From Eledone cirrhosa (Eukaryota): DNA of 64,000 nucleotides. The position numbers were made by a program, and so were the translations under genes. Under the pieces are notes generated by a model. That model did no database searches. It was not told the DNA's origin and worked only from the letters and a program-made list of their open reading frames with translations. The first letter of the stretch is position 1, and the number at the start of each line of letters is the position of its first letter. Below are positions 6,105 through 57,261 of the stretch, piece after piece. The DNA lies in NCBI GenBank assembly GCA_964016885.1, contig OZ024741.1:238080001-238144000 (forward strand), given 5' to 3'.

Positions 6105-6184
6105 CTATGTTGGCTGTAGATAGGTATCTTGTACTTGTTGTCCCTTTTGTATTGTGGCTGGAACTGTATTGTCATTGGTATATT
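6105..6184 (-). CDS. Pcdh: Protocadherin gene 1, terminal coding exon ((E)YTNDNTVPATIQKGQQVQDTYLQPT*)
   Basis: Pyrimidine tract ...tattttccag| acceptor; phase 1 matches the previous exon; TAG stop; conserved in six copies. Confidence 0.8.
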
Positions 6185-6261
6185 CTGGAAAATAGAAAAT
6201 ATAGAAATAGAAATTATATTTCAATATAACAACTCTGTAAAGATAAAAACATTGTTAAACA

Positions 6262-7393
6262 TAACATGGCCTAATCAAAAACCTTAAAGTTAACTTGTCT
6301 AAGACTAAAGTTCTAGTATGTAGAAAGGAAAATAGAGTACAGGTGCCCTCTGGGAAATGGCCATGCTCAGTGTAGGTAGAAATTCAGGAGTAGGTAGAAA
6401 TTCCATTCTATGCCCCAAATGCAAACTCTGGGTACATAAAAGATGTAGTGGGATCACAGGCAAACTATCTAAGACTGTAGATTTTATATGTGGCCGATGC
6501 TAAGGTGCAATAAGTAGCAAGTCCACAGGATACTAGCCTTTTCTACTGCCCAGATGGTTCTATAGAAATAGTAGACACTTTCCGTTACCTGGGTGACGAA
6601 ATCAGCAGTGGTGGAGGGTACTCTGAAGTACAGTAGCCAGAGTTAGAATGGGATGGAAAAAGTTCAGAGAGCTTATACCGCTGTTGGCCACAAAAGGTTT
6701 CTCTCTAAAAATGAAAGGCAGATTGTATGATGCCTGTATACGAACAGCAATGTTACATGGCAGTGAGACATGGGCATTGTGTGCAGAGGACCTGCGCAGA
6801 TTGGAAAGGAACGAAACATGCATGCTCCATTGGAGTGTAATAGTAATATACATGAACGGCAAAACATATACGAACTAAGTGAGAAATTAGGAATAAGAGG
6901 GATCAGATGCTGCTTACTTGAGAGAAGATTATGTTGGTATGGTCATGTGATGCGCATGAAAGACGACAGCTGTATAAAAAAATGCAAGGCGATCAAAATT
7001 GATGGAAGTTACGGAGTAGTTGACCCAGAAAAACCTAGGATGACATGATAAAATCTGACCTTGCACACTTACACCTCTCTAAGACAATGTTATTGGATCG
7101 AGATCTTTGGCGCCACACAGTAATACAGAACCCGCCATCCCTACGTGCAAAGTTAACCCACAGTCAGTAGGCCCTTCTTAACCAAATATACATCCCAGCC
7201 CATTACCCCAACTCCCACCAACACCGCCCCTTCTCTGTAAAGTCATGTTCGTACCATAACATCCAGTCCAAACTAAAGAGGTCATGTAGCAGTCACTACA
7301 AAATACAAGCGAGACATGGCCACTCGATCAATCTTGCCTCAAGTGGGACAATTCCTGTCTAACTCATGTTGGCGTTGAAGATAGATGTTAAAC

Positions 7394-7428
<35 letters not shown>
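6262..7428 (+). mobile_element. RTE-clade LINE 3' fragment in the last intron of gene 1
   Basis: KGRLYDACIRTAMLHGSETW and RRLCWYGHVMRM motifs, (GAT)n tail; this intron is 1311 nt against ~160 nt in genes 3-6. Confidence 0.85.
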
Positions 7429-7429
<1 letters not shown>

Positions 7430-7495
7430 AATATTACATATTATCTAACAGTAATAAAAGGAATTACATTTCTGTTATGTTTAGGTAAAGGTTAC

Positions 7496-7643
7496 CTGGT
7501 TGTGAAGGTATCTCTTCATATGGTTTAGTCTTGCCAATACTCTTGTAACCTTCTCTGCTTTTTTGTGATGTTAAGGTGTCACTGTTGTAGTTAGACATGC
7601 TGAGACTGGTGCGACCTTCATGACTATGGATTGAATCACATCT
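7496..7643 (-). CDS. Pcdh: Protocadherin gene 1, second coding exon (148 nt, RCDSIHSHEG...KPYEEIPSQP)
   Basis: ctaatccacag| acceptor, CCAG|GTAAC donor, phase 0 to phase 1, open frame, conserved in six copies. Confidence 0.85.
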
Positions 7644-8162
7644 CTGTGGATTAGAAAAGATGTCAGAAACATGATTTTAACTAGAGTAACTGTTTACATT
7701 TATTAGTTAAATTGATCTTTCTATGAAACAAGAAAGGAGTAATTTTATGCAATGTCATTAAACATCCACAAAATCAGTAGAAACTGCACATATTGAACAA
7801 ATAATATTAATATCGTAAACAATGCAAAAAAAAAAAAGAAACACTGATTTTCAATACAAACTGGAGACTGTGTTGAAAACCTTCCACCAAATGACAATAT
7901 TACTGTGTTCTATTAAATATGATGTAATATGCCATTTATTCATGTCTCAAATATATTAGGATACTTGTAGATTTATAGTAATGATTCTATAGGATTTCAG
8001 TGATGTTTTTATCCAAGAAATCTCAAAATATTGTAGTTTGTAATTTTAAAATGAAAACCAATACTCATCTTCTTTTTAAGAGTGAATAATAAAGCAACAA
8101 TAAATTATGAATAAAAATTGACAAAACAAATATAACATCTAACAATTAAATGTAATATTCAC

Positions 8163-10556
8163 CTGAGGGACTGGTGGAAGTCTCCTTTGTGTTGTTGAGA
8201 ATTTCCACTCATCTGGTAGCTGTTCCATCTCTGGATAAAACTGACTTTTAGATTTTATTGTCTGAAGATTTCTGTTAAATATTTCTTCTGCATTTCTCGT
8301 TATTGCCACAGGATTGTTGGTATGATACAGTAATTGTCTCATCTCAGTCTGAGACAGAAAGTTTGGTGGATTATCTGCTGTTGTAGGTGAGTTATTGGTG
8401 TGATTAATACATCTGAAAACACACAGTGTTATTGACACTACAATAGCCACAGATATTATTACAGCTGCTGCTACAATGATAATTACCCAAGTCATATTGA
8501 GGTTGTTACCAGTCTGTAAGTGGACAGCATTCAACATTGGAGATGTATCATTACTAACAAACAGTGTTAGTATGATAACAGTTGTTGCTGATTGAACTGG
8601 AGTACCACCATCTTTCACTATAAACTGTAGGTCATATGTTCCTGCATCATTTTGGTAAACTGTCCGAGAGAAAGATAAGACACCAGTGTGGGAGTTGACT
8701 GTAAACAGGTTTTTATCATTAGATCTCAGTATTCCATATGTGAGGAAAGCATTGTTTCCAGTGTCTTTGTCAGAGGCTTTCAGAATTGTGATGTCTTTTT
8801 TACTGTGTGGATGGTAGTGGACATCTAGATTGTAAGGGTCATTAATAGGAAAGGTAAAATAGGGAGCATTATCATTTTTATCTAGAATCTCAATAACAAT
8901 ATTGGCAGTGTCATTCAGAGAAGGTGTTCCATTATCTTTGACTAAAACCTGGAATTTATAGATGTCTTTTACTTCCCGATCTATTGATTGTGATGTAGAA
9001 ATAAATCCATATTTTGTAAGTTGGAAAGGAATGTTATCATTGTTGTTATCATTGATGATAGAATATGTAAGTTGACCTCCATCTCCAAGATCAGGGTCTG
9101 TAGCATTGATGAAGCCAATAGGGAAGTCAACTTTCTGGTTTTCATAGGTGAGGAATTGGAATGTATCTTTGGTAAAATGTGGCTGTACATCATTGACATC
9201 AGTTACTTTGACAGAGAAATACTTCTTAGTTTCTAGTTGAGGTGATCCCATGTCATGACATAAAATAGATACTTTATAGTGGTCGTTTATTTCTCTATCA
9301 AGATGTCCCTTAACCATCATTTTATATTCTTTAGAATCTATTTTGGCAAGTTTAAATTTATCATGTTTTAAGTCACAGCTAACCTCACCATTAGGTCCAA
9401 CATCAGTGTCAGTGACTATAACATAAGCTATAAAACTATCAATTTTACTTGCTTCTGAAACTCCTGTGGAACTTTCTGTTAAAGGTGATACAAAATCTAT
9501 ATTTATCACTGGAGCATTATTTTGGTTATTGATTACACGAATTTGAACTGCAGTTACTGAACTCAAAGGAGGTTTCCCTCCATCACGTGCTTCAATAAAT
9601 AATTTATAAAACTCAATCTTACTAAAGTGAAAATTATCATGTAAAAATATCTCTCCAGTTTTCTTATTCAATACAAAATATTTCTGGGAATTTCGAGATG
9701 TTTTATGGTTGAAATGATAAGAAATCTTTCCATTGTCTCCAGAATCTAGATCTGTAGCTTTTACTGTAATAATTGGTAAATGCCTTTGATGTGAATTATT
9801 TATAGATATGTTGTAGACTTTCTGTGAAAATACAGGTGTGTTATCATTAACATCTGTCACAGCTATGTGTACCTTGAGGGTAGCTGTTTGGGGAGGGTTC
9901 CCTCCATCTTTAGCTTCAAGTGTCAACATATATGAGTCTTTTATTTCCCTGTCTAATTTGCCTTCTAAAGATAATTCAGGTATGTAGACTCCATCATGTC
10001 GCCTTATGACAGACAGGGCAAATGGTTCTCTCTTACCTTTCTTGATCATGTACATAAGCTGAGAATTTTTTATTGAAATATCTTGATCAATGGCATTTGG
10101 AAGAGAGATTTTTGCTCCTTTTGTGTCTCTCTCAAAAAATTCAATTTTAACTTCATTGTCTGGAAATTCTGGTGGATGGTCATTGATGTCTTCTATTACT
10201 ATTTTTATTTTCAATATCTTCATAAATGTTTCTGCTTTCCTCACTGCTACTTTAACAATTCTGGAACATTCCTTGTTATATGTACACAGTGACTCAGCAT
10301 CCAGTGTCTGTGTAGTGTATAGTTTTCCTGTGTTGGTGACATTGAATAAGTGAGAACCACTTGACACTGTCCTTTGTAGTTGTGTAAATGTAATGAGAGT
10401 GTGTTGTTGATGTGTAAGAGAGTGTGTTAAGTTAGAATCAACAGCAATGTCTCCTATATAGGTGTGAGGACTGCCTTCTTCATTGAGATGGTAAGTAATG
10501 TCTATAGACAGTACAATGTTTATCAGTAGACAGAGTAGACCAATATATGTTGTCAT
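8163..10556 (-). CDS. Pcdh: Protocadherin gene 1, large coding exon (signal peptide, EC1-6, TM, juxtamembrane; 798 codons, ~873 aa spliced)
   Basis: Cadherin motifs DINDH, LDRE, DVNDN, DxDxG; EC1 C-x5-C (CTYNKEC); TM WVIIIVAAAVIISVAIVVSITLCVF; donor CAG|GTGAAT; acceptor ttttgtag 38 nt before ATG. Confidence 0.95.
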
Positions 10557-11599
10557 GTCTGGAATTCTTCATCACACTTTAGCAGTATCAATTTCTACAA
10601 AAGACATAAGAAATATTTAAAGTTGAAATATGAGTAAATCATCATGATCGTTATGGTTTTAACAATTTAATTGTTATTAGGAGGTACTGTCCTCCTGGAT
10701 GGGCCAGGGAAACTTACTTGTTACTAATGTTCCACTAGTCTATTCAAATTTTGTCTTAGTTTTTATAGTTGGATGCCTTCCCTAACATCAACTATTCTAC
10801 AGTGTATCCTGATAAAATGCTTTTAGCAACAATAGTAGCGAGGTTACCATGTCACTAACTAAAGAGTCCTGTCTAGCCTACATTATTTATTTGTGCCTAA
10901 CGTAGAAACAATTATTTACTTTCAATAGTCAACCCTTTTTCAGAGTTTATTTATTGCATTTTATAATAGCACCAGTATTGAAGAGGTTGTCAAGTCCTCA
11001 ACAAGACTAAAGAGTCCTCCCAATTTTACATTGTCTCCATTTGCTCATCAGTTACTTTACATGACAAGGTACCTCTTCACTCCATGTGGTTTCCATCATT
11101 TCAAGGCAAATGTAACAGAGATGGTGTTTGAAGTGTGTATGTTTGTGTGTAAGGGTAGAAGATGATAACCTAGAGTTGAATGTAGATAAGCTAGAGTGTG
11201 AAAGTGACAGTAATGGGTAGGAGGTTGAATAAGAAAACAGTATGAGCAATGCCAATAGGAATGAGTCATGATATGAAAGAGTGAATAATGGGTTTCACAG
11301 AGAACAAAGTGACAGATTTCAGTCATATGGTTCTTATGGAATTAGGAGAAGTTAAGCTCTGAATTTTTGCAAATAATGGGTGAAGTAGGAGAGGAAAGCA
11401 GTTCTATGAAGAAGGTGGCAATAGAAAATTATATGAATATGTTCATATCTGTTGCCAGGTATGGGTGATTAAGACAATAGTAGCAACAGCAGTAGCAGTA
11501 GTAATAATGAGGAATAGGAAACTAGTAGAGAACAGGGGCTGAAGAGATCTCTGGTAACCCACAGAAAAGTGGCAGTGATAGTTTGTCCAGTGAAAGAAA

Positions 11600-17978: not shown

Positions 17979-18058
17979 CTATGTTGGCTGTAAATAGGTA
18001 TCTTGTACTTGTTGTCCCTTTTGTATTGTGGCTGGAACTGGATTGTCATTGGTATATT
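17979..18058 (-). CDS. Pcdh: Protocadherin gene 2, terminal coding exon
   Basis: ttttccag| acceptor, (E)YTNDNPVPATIQKGQQVQDTYLQPT*. Confidence 0.8.
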
Positions 18059-18127
18059 CTGGAAAATAGAAATTATATTTCAATATAACAACTCTGTAAA
18101 GATAAAAACATTGTTATATTACACTAA

Positions 18128-19403
18128 ACATAACATGGACTAATCAAAAGCCTTAAAGTTAGCTTGTCTAAGACTAAAGTTCTAGTATGTAGAAAGGAAA
18201 ATAGAGTACAGGTGCCCTCTGGGAAATGGCCATGCTCAGTGTGTAGGAAAGGAGTAGGTAGAAATTCCATTCTATGCCCCAAATGCAAACTCTGGGTACA
18301 TAAAAGATGTAGTGGGATCACAGGCAAACTATCTATACTGTAGATTTTATATGTGGCCGATGCTAAGGTGCAATAAGTAGCAAGTGTCCACAGGATACTA
18401 GCTCCTTCTACTGCCCAGATGGTTCTATAGAAATAGTGGACACTTTCTGTTACCTGGATGACAAAATCAGCAGTGGTGGAGGTACTCTGAAAGTACAGTA
18501 GCCAGAGTCAGAACGAGATGGAAAAAGTTCAGAGAATTAATAACAGTGCTGGCCACAAAAGGTTTCTCTCTAAAAATGTAAGGCAGATTGTATGATGTCT
18601 GTATACGAACAGCAATGTTACATGGCAGTGAGACATGGGCATTGTGTGCAGAGGACCTGCGCAGATTGGAAAGGAACGAAACATGCATGCTCCATTGGAA
18701 TGTAATAGTAATATATGCAAACGGCAAAACAAACGAACTAAGTGAGAAATTAGGAATAAGAGGGATCAGATGCTGTTTACTTGAGAGAAGATTATGTTGG
18801 TATGGTCATGTGATGCACATGAAAGACGACAGCTGTATAAAATAGTGCAAGGCGATCAAAATTGATGGAAGTTACGGAGTAGTTGACCCAGAAAAACCTA
18901 GGATAACATGATAAAATCTGACCTTGCACACTTACACCTCTCTAAGACAATGTTATTGGATCGAGATCTTTGGCGCCACACAGTAATACAGAACCCGCCA
19001 TCCCAAAGTTAACCTACAGTCAGTAGGTCACTCTTAACCAAACATACACCCCAACCCACTACCACCAACATCACCCCTTCTCTGGAAAGTAATGTTTGCA
19101 CCACAATATCCAGTCCAAACTAAAGAGGTCATGTAGCTGTCACTACAAAAAAAACAGGGTCCAAGCTGTAAAGTGGTCGTGTAGGCTCCCAGTCCACACT
19201 GTAAATGTGGTTCGTGTTAGGGAAGTGCATCCAGCCATAGAAAACTTGCCAGATACAGTCCTATACGAGTGAGACAGCCACCCGATCAATCTTGCCTCAA
19301 GTCGAGTGGGACAATATCCGTCTAACTCATGTCGTCGTGGAAGATAGACGTTAAATGATGATGATGATGACGTTGACGATGACGATAACGATGATGATGA
19401 TGA
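18128..19403 (+). mobile_element. RTE-clade LINE 3' fragment in the last intron of gene 2
   Basis: Same insertion as 6262-7428; CIRTAMLHGSETW motif; (GAT/GAC)n tail. Confidence 0.85.
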
Positions 19404-19466
19404 TATATATTATCTGATAGTAATAAAAAGAATTACATTTCTATGTTATGTTTAGATAAAAGTTAC

Positions 19467-19614
19467 CTGGTTGTGCAGATATCTCTTCATATGGTTTAGT
19501 CTTGCCAATACTCTTGTAACCTTCTCTGCTTTTTTGTGATGTTAAGGTGTCACTGTTGTAGTTAGACATGCTGAGACTGGTGCGACCTTCATGACTATGG
19601 ATTGAATCACATCT
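19467..19614 (-). CDS. Pcdh: Protocadherin gene 2, second coding exon
   Basis: 148 nt, AG/GT bounded, RCDSIH...PYEEISAQP. Confidence 0.85.
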
Positions 19615-20151
19615 CTGTGGATTAGAAAAGATTTCAGAAACATGATTTTAACTAGAGTAACTTTTTAACATTTATTAGCTAAATTGATCTTTCTATGAAA
19701 CAAGGAAGGAGTAATTTTGTACAATGTCATTAAACATCCACAAAATCAGTAGAAACTGTACATATTGAACAAATAATATTAATATTGTAAACAATGCAAA
19801 AAAAAAAAACATTGATTTTCAATACAAACTGGAGACTGTGTTGAAAACCTTCCACCAAATGACAATATTACTGTGTTCTATTAAATATGATGTAATATGC
19901 CATTTATTCATGTCTCAAATATATGAGGTTGCTCGTATATTTTTAGCAATGATTCTGTAGGATTTCAGTGATGTTTTTATCAAAGAAATATGAGAAATTC
20001 CGTATCAAGTCACAAAATATTGTAGCTTGTAATTTTAAAATGAAAACCAATACTCATCTTCTATTGAAGAGTGAATAATAAAATAACAATAAATTATAAA
20101 TAAAAATTGGCAAAACCAATATAATATCTAACAATTAAATGTAATATTTAC

Positions 20152-22551
20152 CTGAGGAACTGGTGGAAGTCTCCTTTGTGTTGTTGAGAATTTCCACTCA
20201 TCTGGTAGCTGTTCCATCTCTGGATAAAACTGACTTTTAGATTTTATTGTCTGAAGATTTCTGTTAAATATTTCTTCTGCATTTCTCGTTATTGCAACAG
20301 GATTGTTAGTCTGATACAGTAATTGTCTCATCTCAGTTTGGGACAGAAAGTTTGGATTATCTGCTGTTGTAGATGAGTTACTGGTGTGATTAATACATCT
20401 GAAAACACACAGTGTTATTGACACTACAATAGCCACAGATATTATTACAGCTGCTGCTACAATGATAATTACCCAAGTCATATTGAGGTTGTTACCAGAC
20501 TGTAAGTGGACAGCATTCAACATTGGAGATGTATCATTACTAACAAACAGTGTTAGTATGATAACAGTTGTTGCTGATTGAACTGGAGTGCCACCATCTT
20601 TCACTATAAACTGTAGGTCATATGTTCCTGCATCATTTTGGTAAACTGTCCGAGAGAAAGATAAGACACCAGTGTGAGAGTTGACTGTAAACAGGTTTTT
20701 ATCATTAGATCTCAGTATTCCATATGTGAGGAAAGCATTGTTTCCAGTGTCTTTGTCAGAGGCTTTTAGTATTGTGATGTCTTTCTTACTGTGAGGATGG
20801 TAGTGGACATCTAGATTGTAAGGGTCATTAATAGGAAAGGTAAAATAGGGAGCATTATCATTTTTATCTAGAATCTCAATAACAATATTGGCAGTGTCAT
20901 TCAGAGAAGGTGTTCCATTATCTTTGACTAAAACCTGGAATTTATAGATGTCTTTCACTTCCCGATCTATTGATTGTGATGTAGAAATAAATCCATATTT
21001 TGTAAGTTGGAAAGGAATGTTATCATTGTTGTTATCATTAATGATAGAATATGTAAGTTGACCTCCATCTCCAAGATCAGGGTCTGTAGCATTGATGAAG
21101 CCAATAGGGAAGTCAACTTTCTGGTTTTCATAGGTGAGGAATTGGAATGTATCTTTGGTAAAATGTGGCTGTACATCATTGACATCAGTTACTTTGACAG
21201 AGAAATATTTCTTAGTTTCTAGTTGAGGTGATCCCATGTCATGACATACAATAGATACTTTATAGTGGTCTATAGTTTCTCTATCAAGATGTCCCTTAAC
21301 AATCATTTTATATTCTTTAGATTCTATTTTGGCAAGTTTAAATTTATCATGTTTTAAATCACAGCTAACCTCACTATTAGGTCCAACATCAGTGTCAGTG
21401 ACCATAACATAAGCTATAAAACTACCAATTTTACTTGCTTCTGAAACTGCTGTGGAACTTTCTGTTAAAGGTGATACAAAATCTATATTTATCACTGGAG
21501 CATTATTTTGGTTATTGATTACATGAATTTGAACTGCAGTTACTGAACTCAAAGGAGGTTTTCCTTCATCACGTGCATCAATAAATAATTTATAAGATTT
21601 CATCTTACTAAAGCTAAAATTATCATGTAAAAATATCTCTCCAGTTTTCTTATTCAATACAAAATATTTCTGGGAATTTCGAGATGTTTTATGGTTGAAT
21701 TGATAAGAAATCTTTCCATTGTCTCCAGAATCTAGATCTGTGGCTTTTAATGTAAGAATTGGTAAATGTCTTTGATGTGAATTATTTATAGATATGTTGT
21801 AGACTTTCTGTGAAAATACAGGTGTGTTATCATTAACATCTGTCACAGCTATGTGTACTTTGAGGGTAGCTGTTTGGGGAGGGTTCCCTCCATCTTTGGC
21901 TTCAAGTGTCAACATATATGAGTCTTTTATTTCCCTGTCTAATTTGCCTTCTAAAGATAATTCAGGTATGAAGACTCCATCATGTTGCCTTGTGACAGAG
22001 AGGGCAAATGGTTCTCTCTTACCTTTCTTGACCATGTACATAAGGTGAGAATTTTTTATTGAAATATCTTGATCAATGGCATTTGGAAGAGAGATTTTTG
22101 CTCCTTTTGTGTCTCTCTCGAAAAATTCAATTTTAACTTCATTGTCTGGAAATTCTGGAGAATGGTCATTGATGTCTTCTATAACTATTTTTATCTTCAA
22201 TATCTTCATAAATGTTTCTGCTTTCCTCACTGCAAATTTGACAATTCTGGAACATTCCTTGTTATATGTACACAGTGATTCAGCATCCAGTGTCTGTGTA
22301 GTGTATAGTTTTCCTGTGTTGGTGACATTGAATAAGTAAGAACCGCTTGACACCGTCCTTTGTAGTTGTGTAAATGTAATGAGAGTGTGTTGTTGATGTG
22401 TAAGAGAGTGTGTTAAGTTGGAATCAACAGCAATGTCTCCTATATAGGTGTGAGGACTGTCTTCTTCATTGACATGGTATGTAATGTCTATAGACAGTAC
22501 AAGGGTCATCAGTAAATGTAGTAGACAGAGTAGACCAATATATGTTGTCAT
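20152..22551 (-). CDS. Pcdh: Protocadherin gene 2, large coding exon (800 codons, ~875 aa spliced)
   Basis: Six cadherin repeats plus TM; donor CAG|GTAAAT after PPVPQ; acceptor 38 nt before ATG. Confidence 0.95.
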
Positions 22552-29319: not shown

Positions 29320-29399
29320 CTACGTTGGCTGTAGATAGGTATCTTGTACTTGTTGTCCCTTTTGTATTGTGGCTGGAACTGGATTGTCATTGGTATATT
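29320..29399 (-). CDS. Pcdh: Protocadherin gene 3, terminal coding exon
   Basis: ttttccag| acceptor, ...DTYLQPT*. Confidence 0.8.
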
Positions 29400-29557
29400 C
29401 TGGAAAATAGAAAATATAGAAATAGAATTATATTTCAATATAACGACTCTGTAAAGATATAAACATTGATGTTATATTACACTAACTATAACATTACATA
29501 TTGTCTTACAGTAATAAAGGGAATTATATTTATATGTTACGTTTAGGTAAAAGTTAC

Positions 29558-29705
29558 CTGGTTGTGAAGGTATCTCTTCATATGGTTTAGTCTTGCCAAT
29601 ACTTTTGTAACCTTCTCTGCTTCTTTGTGATGTTAAGGTGTCACTGTTGTAGTTAGACATGCTGAGACTGGTGCGACCTTCATGACTATGGATTGAATCA
29701 CATCT
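29558..29705 (-). CDS. Pcdh: Protocadherin gene 3, second coding exon
   Basis: 148 nt, AG/GT bounded; overlaps ORF-track 29472..29660. Confidence 0.85.
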
Positions 29706-30240
29706 CTGTTGAATATAAAAGATATCAGAAACATGATTTTAACTAGAGTAACTGTTTTCATTTATTAGCTAAATTGATCTTTCTATGAAACAAGAAAAGA
29801 GTCATTTTATTCAATGTCATTAAACATTCACAGAATCAGTAGATAGCTGTACACATTGAACAAATGATGTTAATATCATAAACATTGCAAACAAAAAAAG
29901 AAAAAACTTGATTTTCAATACAAACTGGAGACTGTGTTGAAAAACTTCCACTAAATGACAATATTACTGTGTTATGAAATATGATGTATTATGCCATTTA
30001 TTCATGTCTCAAATATAATAGGCTACATATACACTCCTTGAAATGATTTTGTATGGTTTCAGTGATATTTTACCAAAGAAATATGAGAAATTCCATGTCA
30101 AACCTCAAAATATTGTTGTAATTTTAAAATGAAAACCAATACTCATCTTCTTTTTATGAGTGAATAATAAAGCAATAATAAATTATGAATAAAAATTGAC
30201 AAAACCAATATAATATCAAACAATTAAATGTAATATTTAC

Positions 30241-32640
30241 CTGAGGAACTGGTGGAAGTCTCCTTTGTGTTGTTGAGAATTTCCACTCGTCTGGTAGCTG
30301 TTCCATCTCTGGATAAAACTGACTTTTAGATTTTATTGTCTGAAGATTTCTGTTAAATATTTCTTCTGCATTTCTGGTTATTGCAACAGGATTGTTAGTC
30401 TGATGCAGTAATTGTCTCATCTCAGTTTGAGACAGAAAGTTTGGATTATCTGCTGTTGTAGGTGAGTTATTGGTGTGATTAATACATCTGAAAACACACA
30501 GTGTTATTGACACTACAATAGCCACAGATATTATTACAGCTGCTGCTACAATGATAATTACCCAAGTCATATTGAGGTTGTTACCAGTTTGTAAGTGGAC
30601 AGCATTCAACATTGGAGATGTATCATTACTAACAAACAATGTTAGTATGATAACAGTTGTTGCTGATTGAACTGGAGTACCACCATCTTTCACTATAAAC
30701 TGTAGGTCATATGTTCCTGCATCATTTTGGTAAACTGTCCGAGAGAAAGATAAGACACCAGTATGGGAGTTGACTGTAAACAGGTTTTTATCATTAGATC
30801 TCAGTATTCCATATGTGAGGAAAGCATTGTTTCCAGTGTCTTTGTCAGAGGCTTTCAGAATTGTGATGTCTTTCTTACTGTGTGGATGGTAGTGGACATC
30901 TAGATTGTAAGGGTCATTAATAGGAAAGGTAAAATAGGGAGCATTATCATTTTTATCTAGAATCTCAATAACAATATTGGCAGTGTCATTCAGAGAAGGT
31001 GTTCCATTATCTTTGACTAAAACCTGGAATTTATAGATGTCTTTCACTTCCCGATCTATTGATTGTGATGTAGAAATAAATCCATATTTTGTAAGTTGGA
31101 AAGGAATGTTATCATTGTTGTTATCATTGATGATAGAATATGTAAGTTGACCTCCATCTTCAAGATCAGGGTCTGTAGCATTGATGAAGCCAATAGGGAA
31201 GTCAACTTTCTGGTTTTCATAAGTGAGGAATTGGAATGTATCTTTGGTAAAATGTGGCTGTACATCATTGACATCAGTTACTTTGACAGAGAAATATTTC
31301 TTAGTTTCTAGTTGAGGTGATCCCATATCATGACATACAATAGATACTTTATAGTGGTCTATAGTTTCTCTATCAAGATGACCCTTAACAATCATTTTAT
31401 ATTCTTTAGAATCTATTTTGGCAAGTTTAAATTTATCATGTTTTAAATCACAGCTAACCTCACCATTAGGTCCAACATCAGTGTCAGAGACTATAACATA
31501 AGCTATAAAACTATCTATTTCACTGTCTTCTGAAACTGCTGTGGAACTTTCTGTTAAAGGAGATACAAAATCTATATTTATCACTGGAGCACTATTCTGG
31601 TTATTAATTACATTAATTTGAACTGTTGTTACAGAACTAAGTTGAGGATCACCTCCATCTCGTGCTTCAATAAATAATAAATAGGATTGCATCTTACTAA
31701 AGTTAAAATTATCATGTATAAATATCTCTCCAGTTTTCTTATCTAATACAAAATATTTCAGTGCATTTCGAGATGTTTTATGGTTGAAATGGTAAGAAAT
31801 CTTTCCGTTGTGTCCAGAATCTAAATCTGTGGCTTTTAAAGTAAGAATTGGTAAATGTCTTTGATGTGAATTATTTATAGATATGTTGTAGACTTTCTGT
31901 GAAAATACAGGTGTGTTATCATTAACATCTGTCACAGATATGTGTACCTTGAGTGTAGCTGTTTGGGGAGGGTTCCCTCCATCTTTAGATTCAAGAGCCA
32001 ACATGTATGTGTCTTTCATTTCCCTGTCTAATCTGTCTTCTAAAGTTAATTCAGGTACGAAAACACCATCATGTCGTCTTGTGACAGAGAGGGCAAATGG
32101 TTCTCTTTTACCTTTCTTTATCATGTATGTAATTTGAGAATTTTGTATTGAAATGTCTTTATCAATAGCATTTGGAAGAGGAATTGTAGTCCCTTTACTA
32201 TCTCTCTCTAGAAAATTAACTGTAACTTCATTCCTTGGAAATTCTGGTGAATGATCATTGATGTCTTCTATAATTATTTTTATCTTAAGAATTTTCATAA
32301 AAGTTTTTCCTTTCCTCACTGCTACTTTAACGATTCTGGAACATTCCTTGTTATATATACACAGAGACTCAGCATCCAGTGTCTGTGTAGTGTATAGTTT
32401 TCCTGTGTTGGTGACATTAAATAAGTGAGAACCACTTGACACTGTCCTTTGTAGTTGTGTAAATGTTATGAGAGTGTGTTGTTGATGTGTAAGAGAGTGT
32501 GTTAAGTTAGAATCAACAGCAATGTCACCTATATAGGTGTGAGGACTGTCTTCTTCATTGACATGATATGTAATGTCTATAGACAGTACAAGAGTCATCA
32601 GTAAATGTAGTAGACAGAGTAGACCAATATATGTTGTCAT
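30241..32640 (-). CDS. Pcdh: Protocadherin gene 3, large coding exon (800 codons, ~875 aa spliced)
   Basis: Six cadherin repeats plus TM; donor CAG|GTAAAT; acceptor 35 nt before ATG. Confidence 0.95.
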
Positions 32641-38651: not shown

Positions 38652-38731
38652 CTACGTTGGCTGTAGATAGGTATCTTGTACTTGTTGTCCCTTTTGTATT
38701 GTGGCTGGAACTGGATTGTCATTGGTATATT
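38652..38731 (-). CDS. Pcdh: Protocadherin gene 4, terminal coding exon
   Basis: ttttccag| acceptor, ...DTYLQPT*. Confidence 0.8.
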
Positions 38732-38890
38732 CTGGAAAATATAAAATATAGAAATAGAAATTATATTTCAATATAACAACTTTGTAAAGATATAAACATT
38801 GATGTTATATTACACTAACCATAACAATATATATTGTCTTACAGTAATAAAGGGAATTTCATTTCTGTGTTATATTTAGATAAAAGTTAC

Positions 38891-39038
38891 CTGGTTGTGC
38901 AGATATCTCTTCATATGGTTTAGTCTTGCCAATACTCTTGTAACCTTCTCTGCTTTTTTGTGATGTTAAGGTGTCACTGTTGTAGTTAGACATGCTGAGA
39001 CTGGTGCGACCTTCATGACTATGGATTGAATCACATCT
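38891..39038 (-). CDS. Pcdh: Protocadherin gene 4, second coding exon
   Basis: 148 nt, AG/GT bounded, open frame. Confidence 0.85.
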
Positions 39039-39524
39039 CTGTTGAATATAAAAGATATCAGAAACATGAGTTTAACTAGAGTAACTGTTTTCATTTATTA
39101 GCTAAATTGATCTTTCTATGAAACAAGAAAAGAGTAATTTTATACAATATCATTAAACATCCACAGAATCAGTAGATAACTGTACACATGGAACACATGA
39201 TGTTAATATAAACATTAAAAAAAAACCGCATTGATTTTCAATACAAACTGGAGACTGTGTTGAAAAACTTCCACTAAATGACAATATTACTGTGTTATGA
39301 AAAATAATAGGCTACATATACACTCCTTGAAATGATTTTGTATGGTTTCAGTGATATTTTATCAAAGAAATGCCATGTCAAACTTCAAAATATTGTTGTT
39401 TATAATTTTAAAATGAAAAACAATACTCATCTTCTTTTTATGAGTGAATAATAAAGCAACAATAAATTATGAATAAAAATTGGCAAAACCAATATAATAT
39501 CTAACAATTAAATGTAATATTTAC

Positions 39525-41924
39525 CTGAGGAACTGGTGGAAGTCTCCTTTGTGTTGTTGAGAATTTCCACTCATCTGGTAACTGTTCCATCTCTGGATAA
39601 AACTGACTTTTAGATTTTATTGTCTGAAGATTTCTGTTAAATATCTCTTCTGCATTTCTAGTTATAGCCACAGGGTTGTTAGTCTGATACAATAATTGTC
39701 TCATCTCAGTTGGAGACAGAAAGTTTGGATTATCTGCTGTTGTAGGTGAGTTATTGGTGTGATTAATACATCTGAAAACACACAGTGTTATTGACACTAC
39801 AATAGCCACAGATATTATTACAGCTGCTGCTACAATGATAATTACCCAAGTCATATTGAGGTTGTTACCAGACTGTAGGTGGACAGCATTCAACATTGGA
39901 GATGTATCATTACTAACAAACAGTGTTAGTATGATAACAGTTGTTGCTGATTGAACTGGAGTACCACCATCTTTCACTATAAACTGTAGGTCATATGTTC
40001 CTGCATCATTTTGGTAAACTGTCCGAGAGAAAGATAAGACACCAGTGTGGGAGTTGACTGTAAACAGGTTTTTATCATTAGATCTCAGTATTCCATATGT
40101 GAGGAAAGCATTGTTTCCAGTGTCTTTGTCAGAGGCTTTCAGAATTGTGATGTCTTTCTTACTGTGTGGATGGTAGTGGACATCTAGATTGTAAGGGTCA
40201 TTAATAGGAAAGGTAAAATAGGGAGCATTATCATTTTTATCTAGAATCTCAATAACAATATTGGCAGTGTCATTCAGAGAAGGTGTTCCATTATCTTTGA
40301 CTAAAGCCTGGAATTTATAGATGTCTTTCATTTCCCGATCTATTGACTGTGATGTAGAAATAAATCCATATTTTGTAAGTTGGAAAGGAATGCTATCCTT
40401 GTTGTTATCATTGATGATAGAATATGTAAGTTGACCTCCATCTCCCAGATCAGGGTCTGTAGCATTGATGAAGCCAATAGGGAAGTCAACTTTCTGGTTT
40501 TCATAGGTGAGGAATTGGAATGTATCTTTGGTAAAATGTGGCTGTACATCATTGACATCAGTTACTTTCACTGAGAAATATTTCTTAGTTTCTAGTGGAG
40601 GTGATCCCATGTCATGACATACAATAGATACTTTATAGTGGTCCTTTATTTCTCTATCAAGATGTCCCTTAATAATCATTTTATATTCCTTAGACTCTAT
40701 TTTGGTAAGTTTAAATTTATCATGTTTTAAATCACAGCTAACCTCACCATTAGGTCCAACATCAGTATCAGAGACTATAACATAAGCTATAAAACTACCA
40801 ACTTTACTTGCTTCTGAAACTGCTGTGGAACTTTCTGTTAAAGGTGATACAAAATCTATATTTATTACTGGAGCACTATTCTGGTTATTAACTATATAAA
40901 TATGAACTGTAGTAACAGATTTTAGGGGAGGTTTCCCCTCATCCTGTGCATCGATGAATAATTTATAAGATTGCATCTTACTAAAGTGAAAATTCTCATG
41001 TAAAAATATCTCTCCAGTTTTCTTATCTAGTATAAAATATTTCTGGGCAATTTGAGATGTTTTATGGTTGAAATGATAAGAAATCTTTCCATTGTCTCCA
41101 GAATCTAAATCTGTGGCTTTTAAAGTTAGAATTGGTAAATGTCTTTGATGTGAATTATTTATAGATATGTTGTAGACTTTCTGTGAAAATACAGGTGTGT
41201 TATCATTAACATCTGTCACAGCTATGTGTACCTTGAGTGTAGCTGTTTGGGGAGGGTTCCCTCTATCTTTTGCTTCTAGTGTCAACATATATGACTCCTT
41301 TAGTTCTCTGTCTAGTTTGTCTCTTAAATTTAGCTCTGGTATGAAGACACCATCATGCTGTTTTGCAATAGAGAGAGAAAATGGGTCTCTCTTATCTTTT
41401 TTAATCATGTATGTAATTTGAGAATTCTTTATTGACACATCATGATCAATGGCATTTGGAAGAGAGATTTTATCTCCTTTACTGTCTCTCTCAAAAAATT
41501 CAATTTTCACTTCATTTTGTGGAAATTCTGGAGAATGGTCATTGATGTCTTCTATAATTATTTTAATCTTCAATATCTTCAGAAATGTTTCTGCTTTCCT
41601 CACTGCTACTTTAACAATTCTGGAACATTCCTTGTTATATGTACACAGAGATTCAGCATCCAGTGTCTGTGTAGTGTATAGTTTTCCTGTGTTGGTGACA
41701 TTGAACAAGTGAGAACCACTTGACACTGTCCTTTGCAGTTGTGTAAATGTAATGAGAGTGTGTTGTTGATGTGTAAGAGAGTGTGTTAAGTTAGAATCAA
41801 CAGCAATGTCTCCTATATAGGTGTGAGGACTGTCTTCTTCATTGACATGATATGTAATGTCTATAGACAGTACAATGTTTATCAGTAAATTTAGTAGACA
41901 GAGTAGACCAATATATGTTGTCAT
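39525..41924 (-). CDS. Pcdh: Protocadherin gene 4, large coding exon (800 codons, ~875 aa spliced)
   Basis: Six cadherin repeats plus TM; donor CAG|GTAAAT; acceptor 38 nt before ATG. Confidence 0.95.
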
Positions 41925-47584: not shown

Positions 47585-47664
47585 CTACGTTGGCTGTAGA
47601 TAGGTATCTTGTACTTGTTGTCCCTTTTGTATTGTGGCTGGAACTGGATTGTCATTGGTATATT
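47585..47664 (-). CDS. Pcdh: Protocadherin gene 5, terminal coding exon
   Basis: ttttccag| acceptor, ...DTYLQPT*. Confidence 0.8.
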
Positions 47665-47823
47665 CTGGAAAATATAAAATATAGAAACAGAAATTATATT
47701 TCAATATAACAACTCTGTAAAGATATAAACATTGATGTTATATTTTAATAAACATAACATTAAATATTGTGTTACAGTAATAAAGAGAATTACATTTATA
47801 TGTTATGATTAGATAAAAGTTAC

Positions 47824-47971
47824 CTGGTTGTGCAGATATCTCTTCATATGGTTTAGTCTTGCCAATACTTTTGTACCCTTCTCTGCTTTTTTGTGATGTT
47901 AAGGTGTCACTGTTGTAGTTAGACATGCTGAGACTGGTGCGACCTTCATGACTATGGATTGAATCACATCT
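47824..47971 (-). CDS. Pcdh: Protocadherin gene 5, second coding exon
   Basis: 148 nt, AG/GT bounded; lies inside ORF-track 47738..48109. Confidence 0.85.
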
Positions 47972-48084
47972 CTGTGGATTATAAAAGTCAGTAGAGTGAA
48001 TCATAATATTCAATAGAAAAAGGTTTATATTTGTTATATAAAATATTTCACATACAACATAAGAGAGAAATTTTATAATAAATA

Positions 48085-49008
48085 CTAGCAGTGGTACCCG
48101 GCATTGCACGGGAAAAGGTATTTTGGAACGCGGGCCACCAGCAGACCTAATCGCGGAAAAACTGCATGCCTGGACAATATGTAAAGAAAATATACCGAAT
48201 ACTCTGATGGCTGGATAATCTTTAGGATTTTCCTCGATGAAGCAGGAAAAATACAGGTTTTCACCTCATGCTTATTTTCTTGATCCCTAGGGGATCAAGA
48301 AAATAAATATATTTTTATGTGCATAATATGCCTTTAAATTTCGGGAAAAGCGGCTAGACGTAACGCCTCCAAAAAGCCCTAAAAAGCTGGAAAAATGAAG
48401 CTTTTCACCTAATGCGGGCCCTAGGCCATAAAAAAGTTGGATTTTCTTTGCTCACAGTATGAAGAAGAGACTGACTAATACATAGTTACAATTTCAAGGA
48501 TATCGGTCTGACGTAACACCTCAAATAACCCCTAAAAACCTGAAAAAACGCAGTTTTTCACCTAAAGCGGGCCCTAGGAGATAAATTGAATTTTTTTATG
48601 TGCATAATACTCCCTGAAACATAAGTAATACACATGTAGAGTTTGAAAAGAATCGGTTGGGTACTTCTCAAGTTTTAGGGATTCAAACTCACAGACACAC
48701 ACACACACACACATCCTCAGAGAAGTGACGCAATGCAGACAGTCAGACATACAGACAGATATTATAAGGCCGCGACGTTATATGTATGTATCTATCTAAA
48801 AAGAGAAAGACTAAGAATTATAGAGAGAGATCGTTAAATCGCCTAATGTGGTCCCTATTGCATTGAAATTTTGGAATTTATTTTGCTCAGAACGTTCCCT
48901 GAAACAAGTATTACATGTGTAAAGTTTGAAAACAGTCGGTTGAGTGCTTCTCCAGTTTTAGGGATTCAAACTCACACAGACAGACATCCTCAGTTTTAGA
49001 TATATAGA
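48085..49008 (-). mobile_element. Non-autonomous Helitron (924 bp) in an intron of gene 5
   Basis: Minus strand starts TC(TATATATC), ends CCCGTGCAATGCCGGG hairpin + 8 nt + CTAG; sits between A and T without TSD; empty site at ~57139 in gene 6. Confidence 0.85.
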
Positions 49009-49133
49009 TTATTCATTAAATTCTACAAGTGGAGAGATGCTATACTGAAAAATCAGAGAACAGCAGATGTAAAATGATGATGAGAACGATGATGTTCAGA
49101 ACAATAACAGAAATATTTAAAAATAATATTTAC

Positions 49134-51530
49134 CTGAGGAACTGGTGGAAGTCTCCTTTGTGTTGTTGAGAATTTCCACTCATCTGGTAGCTGTTCCATC
49201 TCTGGATAAAACTGACTTTTAGATTTTATTGTCTGAAGATTTCTGTTAAATATCTCTTCCGCATTTCTGGTTATTGCAACAGGGTTGTTGGTCTGATACA
49301 GTAATTGTCTCATCTCAGTCTGAGAGAGAAAGTTTGGATTATCTGCTGTTGTAGGTGAGTTATTGGTGTGATTAATACATCTGAAAACACACAGTGTTAT
49401 TGACACTACAATAGCCACAGATATTATTACAGCTGCTGCTACAATGATAATTACCCAAGTCATATTGAGGTTGTTACCAGTCTGTAAATGGACAGCATTC
49501 AACATTGGAGATGTATCATTACTAACAAACAATGTCAGTATGATAACAGTTGTTGCTGATTGAATTGGAGTACCACCATCTTTCACTATAAACTGTAGGT
49601 CATATGTTCCTGCATCATTTTGGTAAACTGCTCGAGAGAAAGATAAGACACCAGTGTGGGAGTTGACTGTAAACAGGTTTTTATCATTAGATCTCAGTAT
49701 TCCATATGTGAGGAAAGCATTGTTTCCAGTGTCTTTGTCAGAGGCTTTCAGAATTGTGATGTCTTTCTTACTGTGTGGATGGTAGTGGACATCTAGATTG
49801 TAAGGGTCATTAATAGGAAAGGTAAAATAGGGAGCATTATCATTTTTATCTAGAATCTCAATAACAATATTGGCAGTGTCATTCAGAGAAGGTGCTCCAT
49901 TATCTTTGACTAAAACCTGGAATTTATAGATGTCTTTCACTTCCCGATCTATTGATTGTGATGTAGAAATAAATCCATATTTTGTAAGTTGGAAAGGAAT
50001 GTTATCATTGTTGTTATTGATGATAGAATATGTAAGTTGACCTCCATCTCCCAGATCAGGGTCTGTAGCATTGATGAAGCCAATAGGGAAGTCAACTTTC
50101 TGGTTTTCATAGGTGAGGAATTGGAATGTATCTTTAGTAAAATGTGGCTGTACATCATTGACATCAGTTACTTTCACTGAGAAATATTTCTTAGTTTCTA
50201 GTTGAGGTGATCCCATGTCGTGACATACAATAGATACTTTATAGTGGTCTATAGTTTCTCTATCAAGTTGCCCCTTAATAATTAAATTGTATTCTTTAGA
50301 ATCTATTTTATTAAGTTTAAATTTATCATGTTTTAAATCACAGCTAACCTCACCATTAGGTCCAACATCAGTGTCAGTGACCATAACATAAGCTATAAAA
50401 CTACCAACTTTACTTGCTTCTGAAACTGCTGTGGAACTTTCTGTTAAGGGTGATACAAAATCTATATTTATCAATGGTTCATTATTATGGTTATCAATTA
50501 CATAAATATGAACTGTGGTAACAGACTTTAGAGGAGGTTTCCCCTCATCTTGTGCATCAATGAATAATTTGTATGATTGTTTCTTACTAAAGTGAAAATT
50601 ATCATGTGAAAATATCTCTCCAGTTTTCTTATTTAATATAAAATATTTCTGGGCACTTTGAGATGTTTTATGGTTGAAATGATAAGAAATCTTTCCATTG
50701 TGTCCAGAATCTAGATCTGTGGCTTTTACTGTAAGAATTGGTAAATGTCTTTGATGTGAATTATTTATAGATATGTTGTAGACTTTCTGTGAAAATACAG
50801 GTGTGTTATCATTAACATCTGTCACAGTTATGTGTACCTTGAGTGTAGCTTTTTGGGGAGGGTTTCCTCCATCTTTGGCTTCAAGTGTCAACATATATGT
50901 GTCTTTTATTTCCCTATCTAATCTGCTTTCCAAAGTTAATTCTGGTATGAAGACACCATCATGTTGTTTTGTGACAGAGAGAGAAAATGGTTCTCTCTTA
51001 CTTTTCTTTATCATGTATGTAATTTGAGAATTTCTTATTGAAATATCTTTATCAATAGCATTTGGAAGAAGTATTTTATCACCTTTTCTAGCTATCTCAA
51101 AAAATTCCATTTCCACTTCATTTTGTGGAAATTTTGGTGAATGGTCATTAATGTCTTCTATTAATATTTTAATTTTTAAGATCTTCATAAACATTTCTGC
51201 TTTCCTCACTGCTACTTTAACAATTCTGGAACATTCCTTGTTATATGTACACAATGACTCAGCATCCAGTGTCTGTGTAGTGTATAGTTTTCCTGTGTTG
51301 GTGACATTGAACAAGTGAGAACCACTTGACACTGTCCTTTGTAGTTGTGTAAATGTTATGAGAGTGTGTTGTTGATGTGTAAGAGAGTGTGTTAAGTTAG
51401 AATCAACAGCAATGTCTCCTATATAGGTGTGAGGACTGTCTTCTTCATTGACATGATATGTAATGTCTATAGACAGTACAAATGTCATCAGTAAATATAG
51501 TAGACAAAGTAGACCAATATATGTTGTCAT
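49134..51530 (-). CDS. Pcdh: Protocadherin gene 5, large coding exon (799 codons, ~874 aa spliced)
   Basis: Six cadherin repeats plus TM; donor CAG|GTAAAT; acceptor 38 nt before ATG. Confidence 0.95.
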
Positions 51531-55750: not shown

Positions 55751-56639
55751 ATTGAAAGAAATATATAAAATCTCTCTCATCCAATAGGAAATTACTGTAA
55801 TGTTATCAGTGTTACACAAACACATGAAATAATAGAATTCACATGTAAATGAAGCTACTTCATAGTATATATATAACAGCACAACATTAGAAGTTTACTA
55901 AGAATAATGAAATGATTTTCATTATTGATTTGGTATTAATTATTTAAAAATTCTTTACATTTTTACTTATTATTACTTATTTTGAATTTATGTAACAAAC
56001 TCTTAATGTTTTACAAGAAATATGTTAGAATATCATAATTTTGGGTAAGTATATTTAAGATTTATCCCTCCTGATGTAAATATTGGATATATAAAAGAAA
56101 GTCATTAATAAAATATTTCGCCATTAATTATGTCAATGTAATTACTTCTAATTTATATTTAACCCTTTAGCATTTAGCTTACTTTATATTTACAATTGTA
56201 TTTTCACGGTAAACACCTTACCTCACATAATATCGAATTTATGAGATTGATATTATCTGTTTTGAGAACAATACTTTAACATAAGGATGAGCAGCTGGTT
56301 ACAGCCAGTTTGCTAAAGGGTTAAATAATTAGGTCTTTTTCATAACTAACTTTCTAAACATTGTAATATATGAGAATTGAGTGGTATCAATAAAGTAAGG
56401 ATATTAACCCTAAAATAGGAGGTAAATTAGAAGAATTAATAAAGAAATATATTTGACCTATGGTAATATAACAGTACTTATAATATTTATGTATTAAAAT
56501 GTAAAATTAGGGAATATAAATGTTGACATTGGTGATCCTTTAAGAGTGAAGCATAGAGGTGATATATTTTTATATCAATATAAAGTATTCTATAACATTT
56601 GGTGTGTGAGAGAATCATTTAATAGTGATGGGACATCTA

Positions 56640-56719
56640 CTACGTTGGCTGTAGATAGGTATCTTGTACTTGTTGTCCCTTTTGTATTGTGACTGGAACT
56701 GGATTGTCATTGGTATATT
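56640..56719 (-). CDS. Pcdh: Protocadherin gene 6, terminal coding exon
   Basis: ttttccag| acceptor, (E)YTNDNPVPVTIQKGQQVQDTYLQPT*. Confidence 0.8.
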
Positions 56720-56878
56720 CTGGAAAATATAAAATATAGAAACAGAAATTATATTTCAATATAACAACTCTGTAAATATATAAACATTGATGTTATATTT
56801 TAATAAACATAACATTAAATATTGTGTTACAGTAATAAAGAGAATTACATTTATATGTTATGATTAGATAAAAGTTAC

Positions 56879-57026
56879 CTGGTTGTGCAGATATCTCTTC
56901 ATATGGTTTAGTCTTGCCAATACTCTTGTAACCTTCTCTGCTTTTTTGTGATGTTAAGGTGTCACTGTTGTAGTTAGACATGCTGAGACTGGTGCGACCT
57001 TCATGACTATGGATTGAATCACATCT
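56879..57026 (-). CDS. Pcdh: Protocadherin gene 6, second coding exon
   Basis: 148 nt, AG/GT bounded; lies inside ORF-track 56793..57068. Confidence 0.85.
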
Positions 57027-57261
57027 CTGTGGATTATAAAAGTCAGTAGAGTGAATCACAATATTCAATAGAAAAAGGTTTATATTTGTTATATAAAATA
57101 TTTCACGTACAACATAAGAGAGAAATTTTATAATAAATATTATTTATTAAATTCTACAAGTGGAGAGATGCTGCACTGAAATCTCACAGAACAGATGTAA
57201 AATGATGATGAGAATGACGATGATCAGATCAATAACAGAAATATTAAAAAATAATATTTAC

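Follow-up and report, generated by a model that had tools for sequence, protein, structure and literature searches.

How a large set of tandemly arrayed octopus protocadherins, each with its own ectodomain, might pass signals to the cell interior is the question raised by a 64,000-nucleotide (nt) stretch of the Eledone cirrhosa genome (assembly GCA_964016885.1, contig OZ024741.1, hereafter contig 2, positions 238,080,001 to 238,144,000, i.e., 238.08–238.14 Mb of a 3.0-Gb genome), referred to below as the window. It contains six large open reading frames (ORFs) of 806–832 codons each, all on the minus strand. For the gene at 6105–10556, a preliminary description had proposed that the spliced cytoplasmic tail bears four docking motifs (RRLPPVP, PYEEI, EYTND and TYLQPT), through which a Src-family kinase is recruited directly. 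The follow-up analysis confirmed the observation, since exons, borders and motifs are as described, and partly supported the interpretation: Src recruitment appears to be a reasonable hypothesis, stronger for YEEIP and weaker as an obligate pair of SH3 and SH2 ligands. Tentatively, with a likelihood somewhat short of even, the spliced tail is read here as a probably unstructured segment in which conserved short linear motifs follow one another, predicted to form a phosphotyrosine/proline docking platform. Of all elements in the tails of octopod protocadherins, the YEE[IL]P within it is the best conserved.

All six minus-strand protocadherin genes share a three-exon layout, a large exon being followed by one of 148 nt and one of 80 nt. 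GT–AG borders were found at 12 of 12 introns, without internal stops, and the products are 872–875 residues long. In the gene at 6105–10556, the span first described (6105–8190, minus strand) extends from the stop codon TAG (6107–6105) up to RRLPPVP (8186–8166), and the large ORF of the gene covers 8139–10568. Its exons are the following.

8163 to 10556, minus strand: exon 1, identified by ORF and translation, ending ..TTQRRLPPVPQ (CAG), then a GT donor
7496 to 7643, minus strand: exon 2, 148 nt, i.e., 49 codons plus 1 base, entered in phase 0 and left in phase 1, with AG before and GT after
6105 to 6184, minus strand: exon 3, 80 nt including the stop, with AG before

Exon 1 encodes a signal peptide, six cadherin repeats, a transmembrane helix (the hydrophobic stretch WVIIIVAAAVIISVAIVVSITLCVF is visible in the translation) and the first 83 cytoplasmic residues. 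Exon 2 yields the peptide RCDSIHS...NYNSDTLTSQK...KTKPYEEIPSQP and exon 3 the peptide (E)YTNDNTVPATIQKGQQVQDTYLQPT*. The protocadherin identity of this gene is given by Pfam Cadherin in six stretches (E 9e-71) plus Cadherin_2, and the top database matches carry a protocadherin annotation and come from Octopus vulgaris and O. sinensis (90% in both over the 143 residues queried) and from Argonauta hians (84–86%). The five other genes of the window have the same exons and the same four motifs, and in all six the private exons 2 and 3 lie within 0.4–2.6 kb of their own large exon.

17979 to 22551, minus strand: exon 1 22551–20152, exon 2 19614–19467, exon 3 18058–17979
29320 to 32640, minus strand: exon 1 32640–30241, exon 2 29705–29558, exon 3 29399–29320
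38652 to 41924, minus strand: exon 1 41924–39525, exon 2 39038–38891, exon 3 38731–38652
47585 to 51530, minus strand: exon 1 51530–49134, exon 2 47971–47824, exon 3 47664–47585
56640 to 59652, minus strand: exon 1 59652–57262, exon 2 57026–56879, exon 3 56719–56640, with borders exactly those of the X4 contig described below

The small exons are real and spliced in. Besides the GT–AG borders in six genes, identical joins of exons 1, 2 and 3 are present in the NCBI gene models of the orthologues in Octopus vulgaris, O. sinensis, O. bimaculoides and Argonauta hians. Moreover, a single 497-nt contig from run X4, whose kind (RNA or DNA) is not recorded, maps with contiguous contig coordinates to 57262–57349, 56879–57026 and 56564–56719, its pieces following the exact predicted exon borders of the gene at 56640–59652; the same contig bridges 6184 and 7496 in the gene at 6105–10556. 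None of the four runs listed for the stretch is labelled as RNA, and the contig was taken to show that the spliced form exists, and not as a measurement of expression. PYEEI sits in exon 2 and both EYTND and TYLQPT in exon 3, so that the small exons hold three of the four motifs, as had been claimed.

The positions of the motifs in the gene at 6105–10556 are given below.

8166 to 8186, minus strand: RRLPPVP, of the class I SH3-ligand type [RK]xLPPxP, the penultimate residues of exon 1, with Q last
7506 to 7520, minus strand: YEEIP, of the Src-family SH2-ligand type, which fits the pattern YxxPhi too
6182 to 6174, minus strand: Y-T-N, in exon 3
6122 to 6111, minus strand: Y-L-Q-P, in exon 3

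The placement reported earlier holds, with RRLPPVP at the end of the large exon, PYEEI in the 148-nt exon, EYTND just past the last junction and TYLQPT at the C-terminus. Over the whole window, each of the four strings occurs six times on the minus strand and zero times on the plus strand. Their invariance in the six genes, to which the preliminary description had drawn attention, is thus real, but it carries no weight, because the six cytoplasmic domains are 97.4% identical overall. The matches to published consensus patterns are exact for all four motifs and are of unequal value. In 200,000 shuffles of the 157-residue tail of the gene at 6105–10556, YEEI arose with a probability of 0.0017 and [RK].LPP.P with 0.0006, whereas Y.N and Y..P were each expected in about 48% of shuffles (0.48 for both). 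The first two are therefore improbable by chance, and the last two are ordinary, low-information matches.

A more informative comparison was obtained from 98 unique octopod protocadherin tails, made up of annotated proteins and the six window genes, which single linkage at 65% identity grouped into 16 clusters. Y[ED][EDT][IL] was present in 59 of the 98 tails where shuffling predicted 1.4, [RK].LPP.P in 39 (0.0 expected), YL[EQA]P in 40 (0.6 expected), Y.N in 67 (45.7 expected) and Y..P in 69 (43.9 expected); as these expectations ignore relatedness, such counts reflect the inheritance of motifs and not independent events, and tallies by cluster are fairer. By cluster, Y[ED][EDT][IL] was carried by the majority of members in 9 of the 16. 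The RxLPPxP motif was confined to clusters 1, 3, 14 and 16, in the form [RK][RK]LPP[VILT]P, and the C-terminal [DE][TS]YL[EQA]P to these four and cluster 15. Y.N was not cluster-specific; no member of clusters 1 and 3 lacked it, and the position EY[STGD]N is conserved in these two only. The window genes belong to cluster 1, the sole group in which all four motifs occur together. Both [RK].LPP.P and YL[EQA]P are retained in the Argonauta and Octopus orthologues. A set of proteins retrieved with the exon-1 sequence only, and hence blind to YEEI, showed a YEEI-type motif in 5 of 7 clusters (1, 10, 11, 12 and 14), clusters 3 and 16 lacking it.

When ten divergent octopod tail segments were aligned (21–45% identical to the first, one close pair reaching 73%), the only columns invariant or conserved to at least 90% were the T of DT[LM] and three positions of YEEIP, namely its Y, its E at +2 and its P at +4. 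Whether motifs are better conserved than their flanks in divergent paralogues was a test named beforehand, and they are: the residues of YEEI(P) reach 0.94–1.00. Indeed, among 16 non-redundant homologues of exon 2 in the Eledone genome, left after removal of near-duplicates, conservation was 1.00 for Y, 1.00 and 1.00 for the two E, 0.94 for I and 0.94 for P, against at most 0.75 at every flanking position, with the restriction that the query itself held YEEIP, an ascertainment bias by which weak matches were partly selected for the motif. By the same test, [RK].LPP.P and [DE][TS]YL.P are conserved within the window's group and its relatives. Islands of this kind amid freely varying residues are the signature of short linear motifs.

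Profile searches were also made. With the full-length alignment, a search of 1.84 billion representatives gave a best 150 matches that consisted almost entirely of giant proteins with many cadherin repeats or of merged gene models from vertebrates, and only six octopod matches of protocadherin size were usable. With a profile of the YEEIP exon run against longer proteins, 72 of 72 matches were octopod (Octopus and Argonauta), and none from squid, cuttlefish, nautilus or other molluscs was present among the 8000 word-sharing candidates scored; there is weak evidence here that the YEEIP module may be octopod-specific.

In its own genome, the window belongs to a much larger protocadherin cluster on contig 2 (238.04–240.80 Mb), composed of sub-arrays with distinct tails and of singletons in addition. 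At least 136 separate copies of exon 2 were counted in the genome, nearly all on the minus strand.

238.04–238.30 Mb, contig 2: window-type array, 28 near-identical exon-2 copies recovered by exon-2 peptide search
238.35–238.58 Mb, contig 2: array of 22 genes without YEEI, directly adjoining the window's array
239.28–239.67 Mb, contig 2: sub-array of about 45 copies
239.97–240.23 Mb, contig 2: sub-array of about 35 copies

When a diverged exon peptide from 239.31 Mb served as query, 86 further copies were recovered, mostly at 238.6–240.8 Mb of contig 2. Three copies lie apart, at 225.1 Mb of contig 1 and at 332.1 and 332.6 Mb of contig 2. Among the copies fetched, YEE[IL] was found in 30 of 30 from one array and in 20 of 20 diverse ones. 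In the window-type array, PYEEI is found in 26 of the 28 copies of exon 2; of the other two, one has PNEEI and one a frameshift. The former, with Asn in place of Tyr, lies at 238163106–238163249 of contig 2, and in the latter, at 238154733–238154852 of contig 2, the frame changes before the motif. These two may be decaying copies.

Selection differs markedly along the six genes. In the ectodomain, which evolves fast, synonymous differences affect 7.5% of codons and non-synonymous ones 8.9% (918 non-synonymous vs 774 synonymous over 10,348 codon pairs, a ratio of 1.19), which fits diversifying or relaxed selection on recognition domains. By comparison, the cytoplasmic part of exon 1 is clearly under strong purifying selection, with 8.1% synonymous and 2.5% non-synonymous differences (ratio 0.30). 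Exons 2 and 3 taken together differ at 2.3% (synonymous) and 2.8% (non-synonymous) of codons, changes too few to judge. Their synonymous divergence of 0.023 per codon pair is unexpectedly low, about one third of that of exon 1 (0.075–0.081), and at the DNA level exon 2 is 0.985 and exon 3 0.981 identical among the six genes, vs 0.69–0.82 in most adjoining intron segments, the exception being the final 70 nt of intron 2 with an identity of 95%. Short-tract gene conversion or a constraint at the nucleotide level, such as splicing signals of tiny exons, could possibly account for this low divergence. As for the structure of the tail, the AlphaFold2 model of the orthologue P0007, built on a 13-sequence alignment, gave a predicted local distance difference test (pLDDT) score below 50 for residues 673–874 and only a short helix at 758–764, low values that are weak evidence of disorder as the transmembrane helix was left unmodelled too. 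A Pfam scan of the tail exons and of three full orthologues matched no tail family, Cadherin_tail included, and no cytoplasmic cadherin family.

Which readers could such a tail address? Docking of a Src-family kinase through its SH2 and SH3 domains is the best reading at the level of sequence, because YEEIP is the classic high-affinity SH2 ligand of this family. For the SH2 domain of Fyn, the peptide EPQpYEEIPIYL, derived from polyomavirus middle T, is described as a cognate ligand that binds with a KD of 327 nM (bioRxiv 10.1101/2020.10.30.361790), and Src-family kinase tails engineered to YEEIP are described as clamping their own SH2 domain tightly (PMC5547543; PMC4140816). The five residues Y-E-E-I-P are identical in the octopus tails, and many octopus paralogues read QYEEIP and so have six residues in common with the viral peptide; the octopus motif, a predicted ligand, differs in that it sits in the tail of an adhesion receptor. 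Similarly, the statement that RxLPPxP is of the class I Src-family SH3 ligand type holds, RRLPPVP being in register with VSLARRPLPPLP, in use as a canonical class I ligand of the c-Src SH3 domain (PMC4509517), and fitting [RK]xxPxxP, its L and P placed as they are in RPLPPLP.

If the tyrosine of the family-wide YEE[IL]P were phosphorylated, a Src-family-type SH2 domain would bind it. A class I SH3 contact would probably be contributed by the upstream RRLPPVP where this is present, in the group of the window and in its close relatives. Adaptors of the Grb2 type and of the Crk/Nck type might be served by further phosphotyrosine sites, EY[ST]N and TYL[QE]P at the C-terminus, respectively. Phosphorylated YxN is the Grb2 SH2 motif and phosphorylated YxxP the motif of Crk, Nck and Abl, and Src-family kinases, Grb2, Crk and Nck all occur in molluscs. 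The tyrosine phosphorylation, the SH2 and SH3 readers and the identity of the kinase as a Src-family member are what we infer here.

A number of results weigh against Src-family docking. The closest orthologues carry YDEI rather than YEEI in 22 of 23 proteins (P0002–P0024); thus, of the earlier claim that phosphorylated YEEI is a Src-family SH2 ligand, the literal core of the standard ligand stands, whereas its form in the nearest relatives departs from it. The specificities used are those of vertebrate SH2 and SH3 domains. Besides, the equally conserved islands EMRQLLYQTNNP, QFYPEME..EWKFSTT and NY.SDTL.SQK are unexplained by the docking model, and within the window exons 2 and 3 show 31 non-synonymous vs 26 synonymous changes, without a signal of purifying selection on the protein. 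The frequency of Y.N and Y..P in shuffled tails, the ascertainment bias of the own-genome search and the unmodelled transmembrane helix point the same way.

The main result against a paired switch concerns the co-occurrence of the motifs. In the adjacent array of 22 genes, exon 2 reads ..EGDI[TS][HQ]QT.. and the tyrosine at the YEEI position is absent from 12 of 12 loci examined; 10 of these 12 have PRRLPPVPQ and 10 have EYSNY...QDTYLEP. Cluster 3, which holds the Octopus and Argonauta orthologues of this array, has YEEI in 0 of 17 tails and keeps PRRLPPVP. Conversely, clusters 2, 10, 11 and 12 have YEE[IL]P without RxLPPxP. Cluster 14, a single tail, pairs RxLPPxP with YEEI and has lost the EY.N site. 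The four motifs thus behave as separable modules, with no single obligate SH3 and SH2 pair. The proposal that paired ligands form a Src switch is weakened by this: because the SH3-type and SH2-type motifs are not co-conserved, an obligate Src-activating switch of the FAK/p130Cas type is not a property of the family. That the more than 100 clustered genes, each with a private YEEIP mini-exon and, in the window's group, an SH3 ligand, form a FAK-like bipartite switch into one Src-family kinase, functionally convergent with vertebrates, is given as a doubtful, somewhat unlikely extension of the docking reading.

Other explanations of the same motifs have to be considered. YEE[IL] could be a YxxPhi sorting signal, read unphosphorylated by the mu subunits of clathrin adaptors and controlling endocytosis or endolysosomal trafficking, the other motifs being unrelated to it. 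YEEI, YEEL and YETL all match this pattern, to the detriment of the docking reading, and a whole array dispenses with YEEI, which could be expected of a trafficking variant. In YxxPhi signals only the Y and the Phi are constrained and the x positions are free, whereas E(+1) and E(+2) are conserved to 100% and P(+4) to 94% in the octopus copies; a sorting signal would not require +1, +2 and +4 to be so invariant, which argues for a more specific reader. Neither YLQP nor YTN falls within the pattern. Even though the proteolytic processing of vertebrate protocadherins is described as requiring endocytosis (PMC7811963), we regard a sorting signal as unlikely. The tails could also dock readers outside the Src family, for instance the SH2 domains of Nck/Dock, Crk, Csk, Syk/Shark-type kinases, Shc or the PI3K subunit p85, or an SH3 protein of another kind. 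The YDEIP of the closest orthologues, again to the disadvantage of a Src-family partner, is near pYDE[PV], which we take to be the preference of Nck; the conserved YPEM of exon 1 presumably fits the p85 SH2 pattern pYxxM; and other octopod groups have a different C-terminal proline motif, KP.LP.VPK. Against such readers stand the QYEEIP of many paralogues, six consecutive residues of a cognate Src-family SH2 ligand, and the Src-type class I register of RRLPPVP, and we consider them rather improbable.

It is quite improbable, in our judgment, that the conserved islands act as a module bound by an unnamed partner independently of phosphorylation, their likeness to SH2 and SH3 ligands being coincidental. 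In most groups YEEIP ends a longer block, ..SDT[LM]..S.[KR]..G..W.., and RRLPPVP ends the block QFYPE.E..EWK.STT, which is repeated several times in the cluster 5 isoforms; the tail has no Pfam match. Yet the residues between the islands vary freely, as they would for separate short motifs, and the model of the tail shows no confident structure. Finally, the motifs could be functionless, inherited through recent tandem duplication and homogenised by gene conversion, with which the near-identity (97%) of the six tails and the synonymous divergence of exons 2 and 3 (0.023 vs 0.075–0.081 in exon 1) are compatible. This last view is highly improbable and is already contradicted by conservation across groups, given that the motifs persist between Octopus and Argonauta and across groups whose tails are otherwise only 21–45% identical. 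Docking of a Src-family kinase stays the preferred reading of the YEEIP element.

The docking reading was compared with known signalling tails. In FAK and p130Cas a proline motif precedes a tyrosine motif, which is the order of the octopus tail. In the latter, the class I proline motif lies N-terminal to the Src-type tyrosine motif within one probably unstructured stretch, RRLPPVP preceding the YEEI tyrosine by 42 residues in the window genes. Unlike in those proteins, the pair is found only in clusters 1 and 14, sister groups keeping one motif alone. Adhesion receptors of the nephrin type, whose tyrosine motifs recruit SH2/SH3 adaptors, offer an analogy only, that of a presumably unstructured tail with several tyrosine motifs possibly read by such adaptors. 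For FAK, engagement by both the SH3 and the SH2 domain of c-Src is described (PMC4140816).

A closer parallel is provided by the vertebrate clustered protocadherins alpha and gamma, which likewise form large tandem arrays, with ectodomain and transmembrane helix encoded together by a large exon, and in which the ectodomain is diversified and the cytoplasmic end behind it conserved. These vertebrate proteins are described as having constant exons in common and as being linked to Fyn (Styfhals 2019, PMC6339937) and to FAK, Pyk2 and the WAVE complex (PMC6339937; PMC7811963). By contrast, the octopus genes have no common constant exons, each having two private small exons, and are therefore outside the vertebrate-type constant-region class. 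The octopus expansion is reported to be independent of the vertebrate one (PMC10084454), and the vertebrate tail motifs are given as absent from octopus in published work (PMC6339937). The list of octopus-specific motifs in its supplement (Table S2) comprises EC1, EC5, EC6, the transmembrane segment (TM) and the PP1 motif [RK][VI]xF, and includes no tyrosine or proline motif. A kinship of YEEIPG with the end of the vertebrate constant region was considered and dropped, the vertebrate YEEI matches lying in cadherin repeats and the sole vertebrate protocadherin compared (P0264) being without a constant region. Convergence with vertebrates, as proposed at the outset, is something that we infer.

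Our literature search on protocadherin and cephalopod tails, YEEI, SH2/SH3 and the intracellular domain turned up no description of the motif among the papers listed, though an earlier one may exist. On the intracellular role of octopus protocadherins, the published analyses give only the absence of the vertebrate tail motifs (PMC6339937). A YEEIP that is near-invariant across arrays of dozens of genes supplies a concrete hypothesis, with a single tyrosine, a single proline motif and a single candidate kinase family, and the neighbouring array, which has lost the tyrosine and kept the other three motifs, supplies a natural control. Vertebrates obtain a common tail by splicing to common exons, whereas in octopus a common tail is kept by selection, perhaps with homogenisation, on private exons. 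If the bipartite-switch extension of the docking reading were true, octopods would have solved the problem of many ectodomains and one signal without common constant exons, the recognition made by any isoform feeding one Src-family kinase. This would amount to a functional convergence with vertebrates, whose clustered protocadherins use Fyn, FAK and Pyk2 for signalling.

Further features of the tails were noted. Beyond the four motifs, conserved islands are found beside the membrane (EMRQLLYQTNNPVAITRNAEEIF), before RRLPPVP (S.FYPEME..EWKFSTT, of which the YPEM is, we presume, of the p85 SH2 type pYxxM) and in exon 2 (NY.SDTL.SQK). An immunoreceptor tyrosine-based activation motif (ITAM) consists of two YxxL/I 6–12 residues apart, and the inhibitory counterpart (ITIM) reads [SIVL]xYxx[ILV]. 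Both were ruled out for the window tails: the next tyrosine, nine residues on from that of YEEI, belongs to YTND and not to YxxL/I, and position -2 of YEEI is K. In the proteins P0139 and P0224–P0237 of Octopus and Argonauta (cluster 5), which come from one locus, isoform tails contain the block 'SQFYFVLEPQNEWKASTT' repeated at least six times. In the window genes the same block stands just ahead of RRLPPVP. Behind every repeat in these isoforms comes a basic/proline stretch of variable sequence. In clusters 2 and 8 (P0200, P0204–P0216 and P0221–P0223), a C-terminal proline motif, KP.LP.VPK or KPLPKVP, lies downstream of ..SEMST[LM]SS.TDSGHG.S....HYE[ET]LP, so that tyrosine and proline motifs follow each other in the order opposite to that of the window genes.

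Lastly, intron 2 of the gene at 6105–10556 holds a degraded retrotransposon fragment (6336–7048, plus strand), antisense to the gene. In its broken plus-strand ORFs, a finger rich in cysteines (..CPKCKLWVHKRCSGI..) and the block ..RRLCWYGHVMRM.. can be read, both of which we take to be typical of the C-terminal part of the reverse transcriptases of long interspersed nuclear elements (LINEs). Contig depth over the fragment is about 1e5, compared with 10–900 elsewhere, and the insertion has lengthened intron 2 to 1311 nt in this gene; four of the six have an intron 2 of 158–159 nt. A (GAT)n microsatellite, whose plus strand reads as consecutive Asp codons, sits at the edge of the fragment, at 7395–7427.

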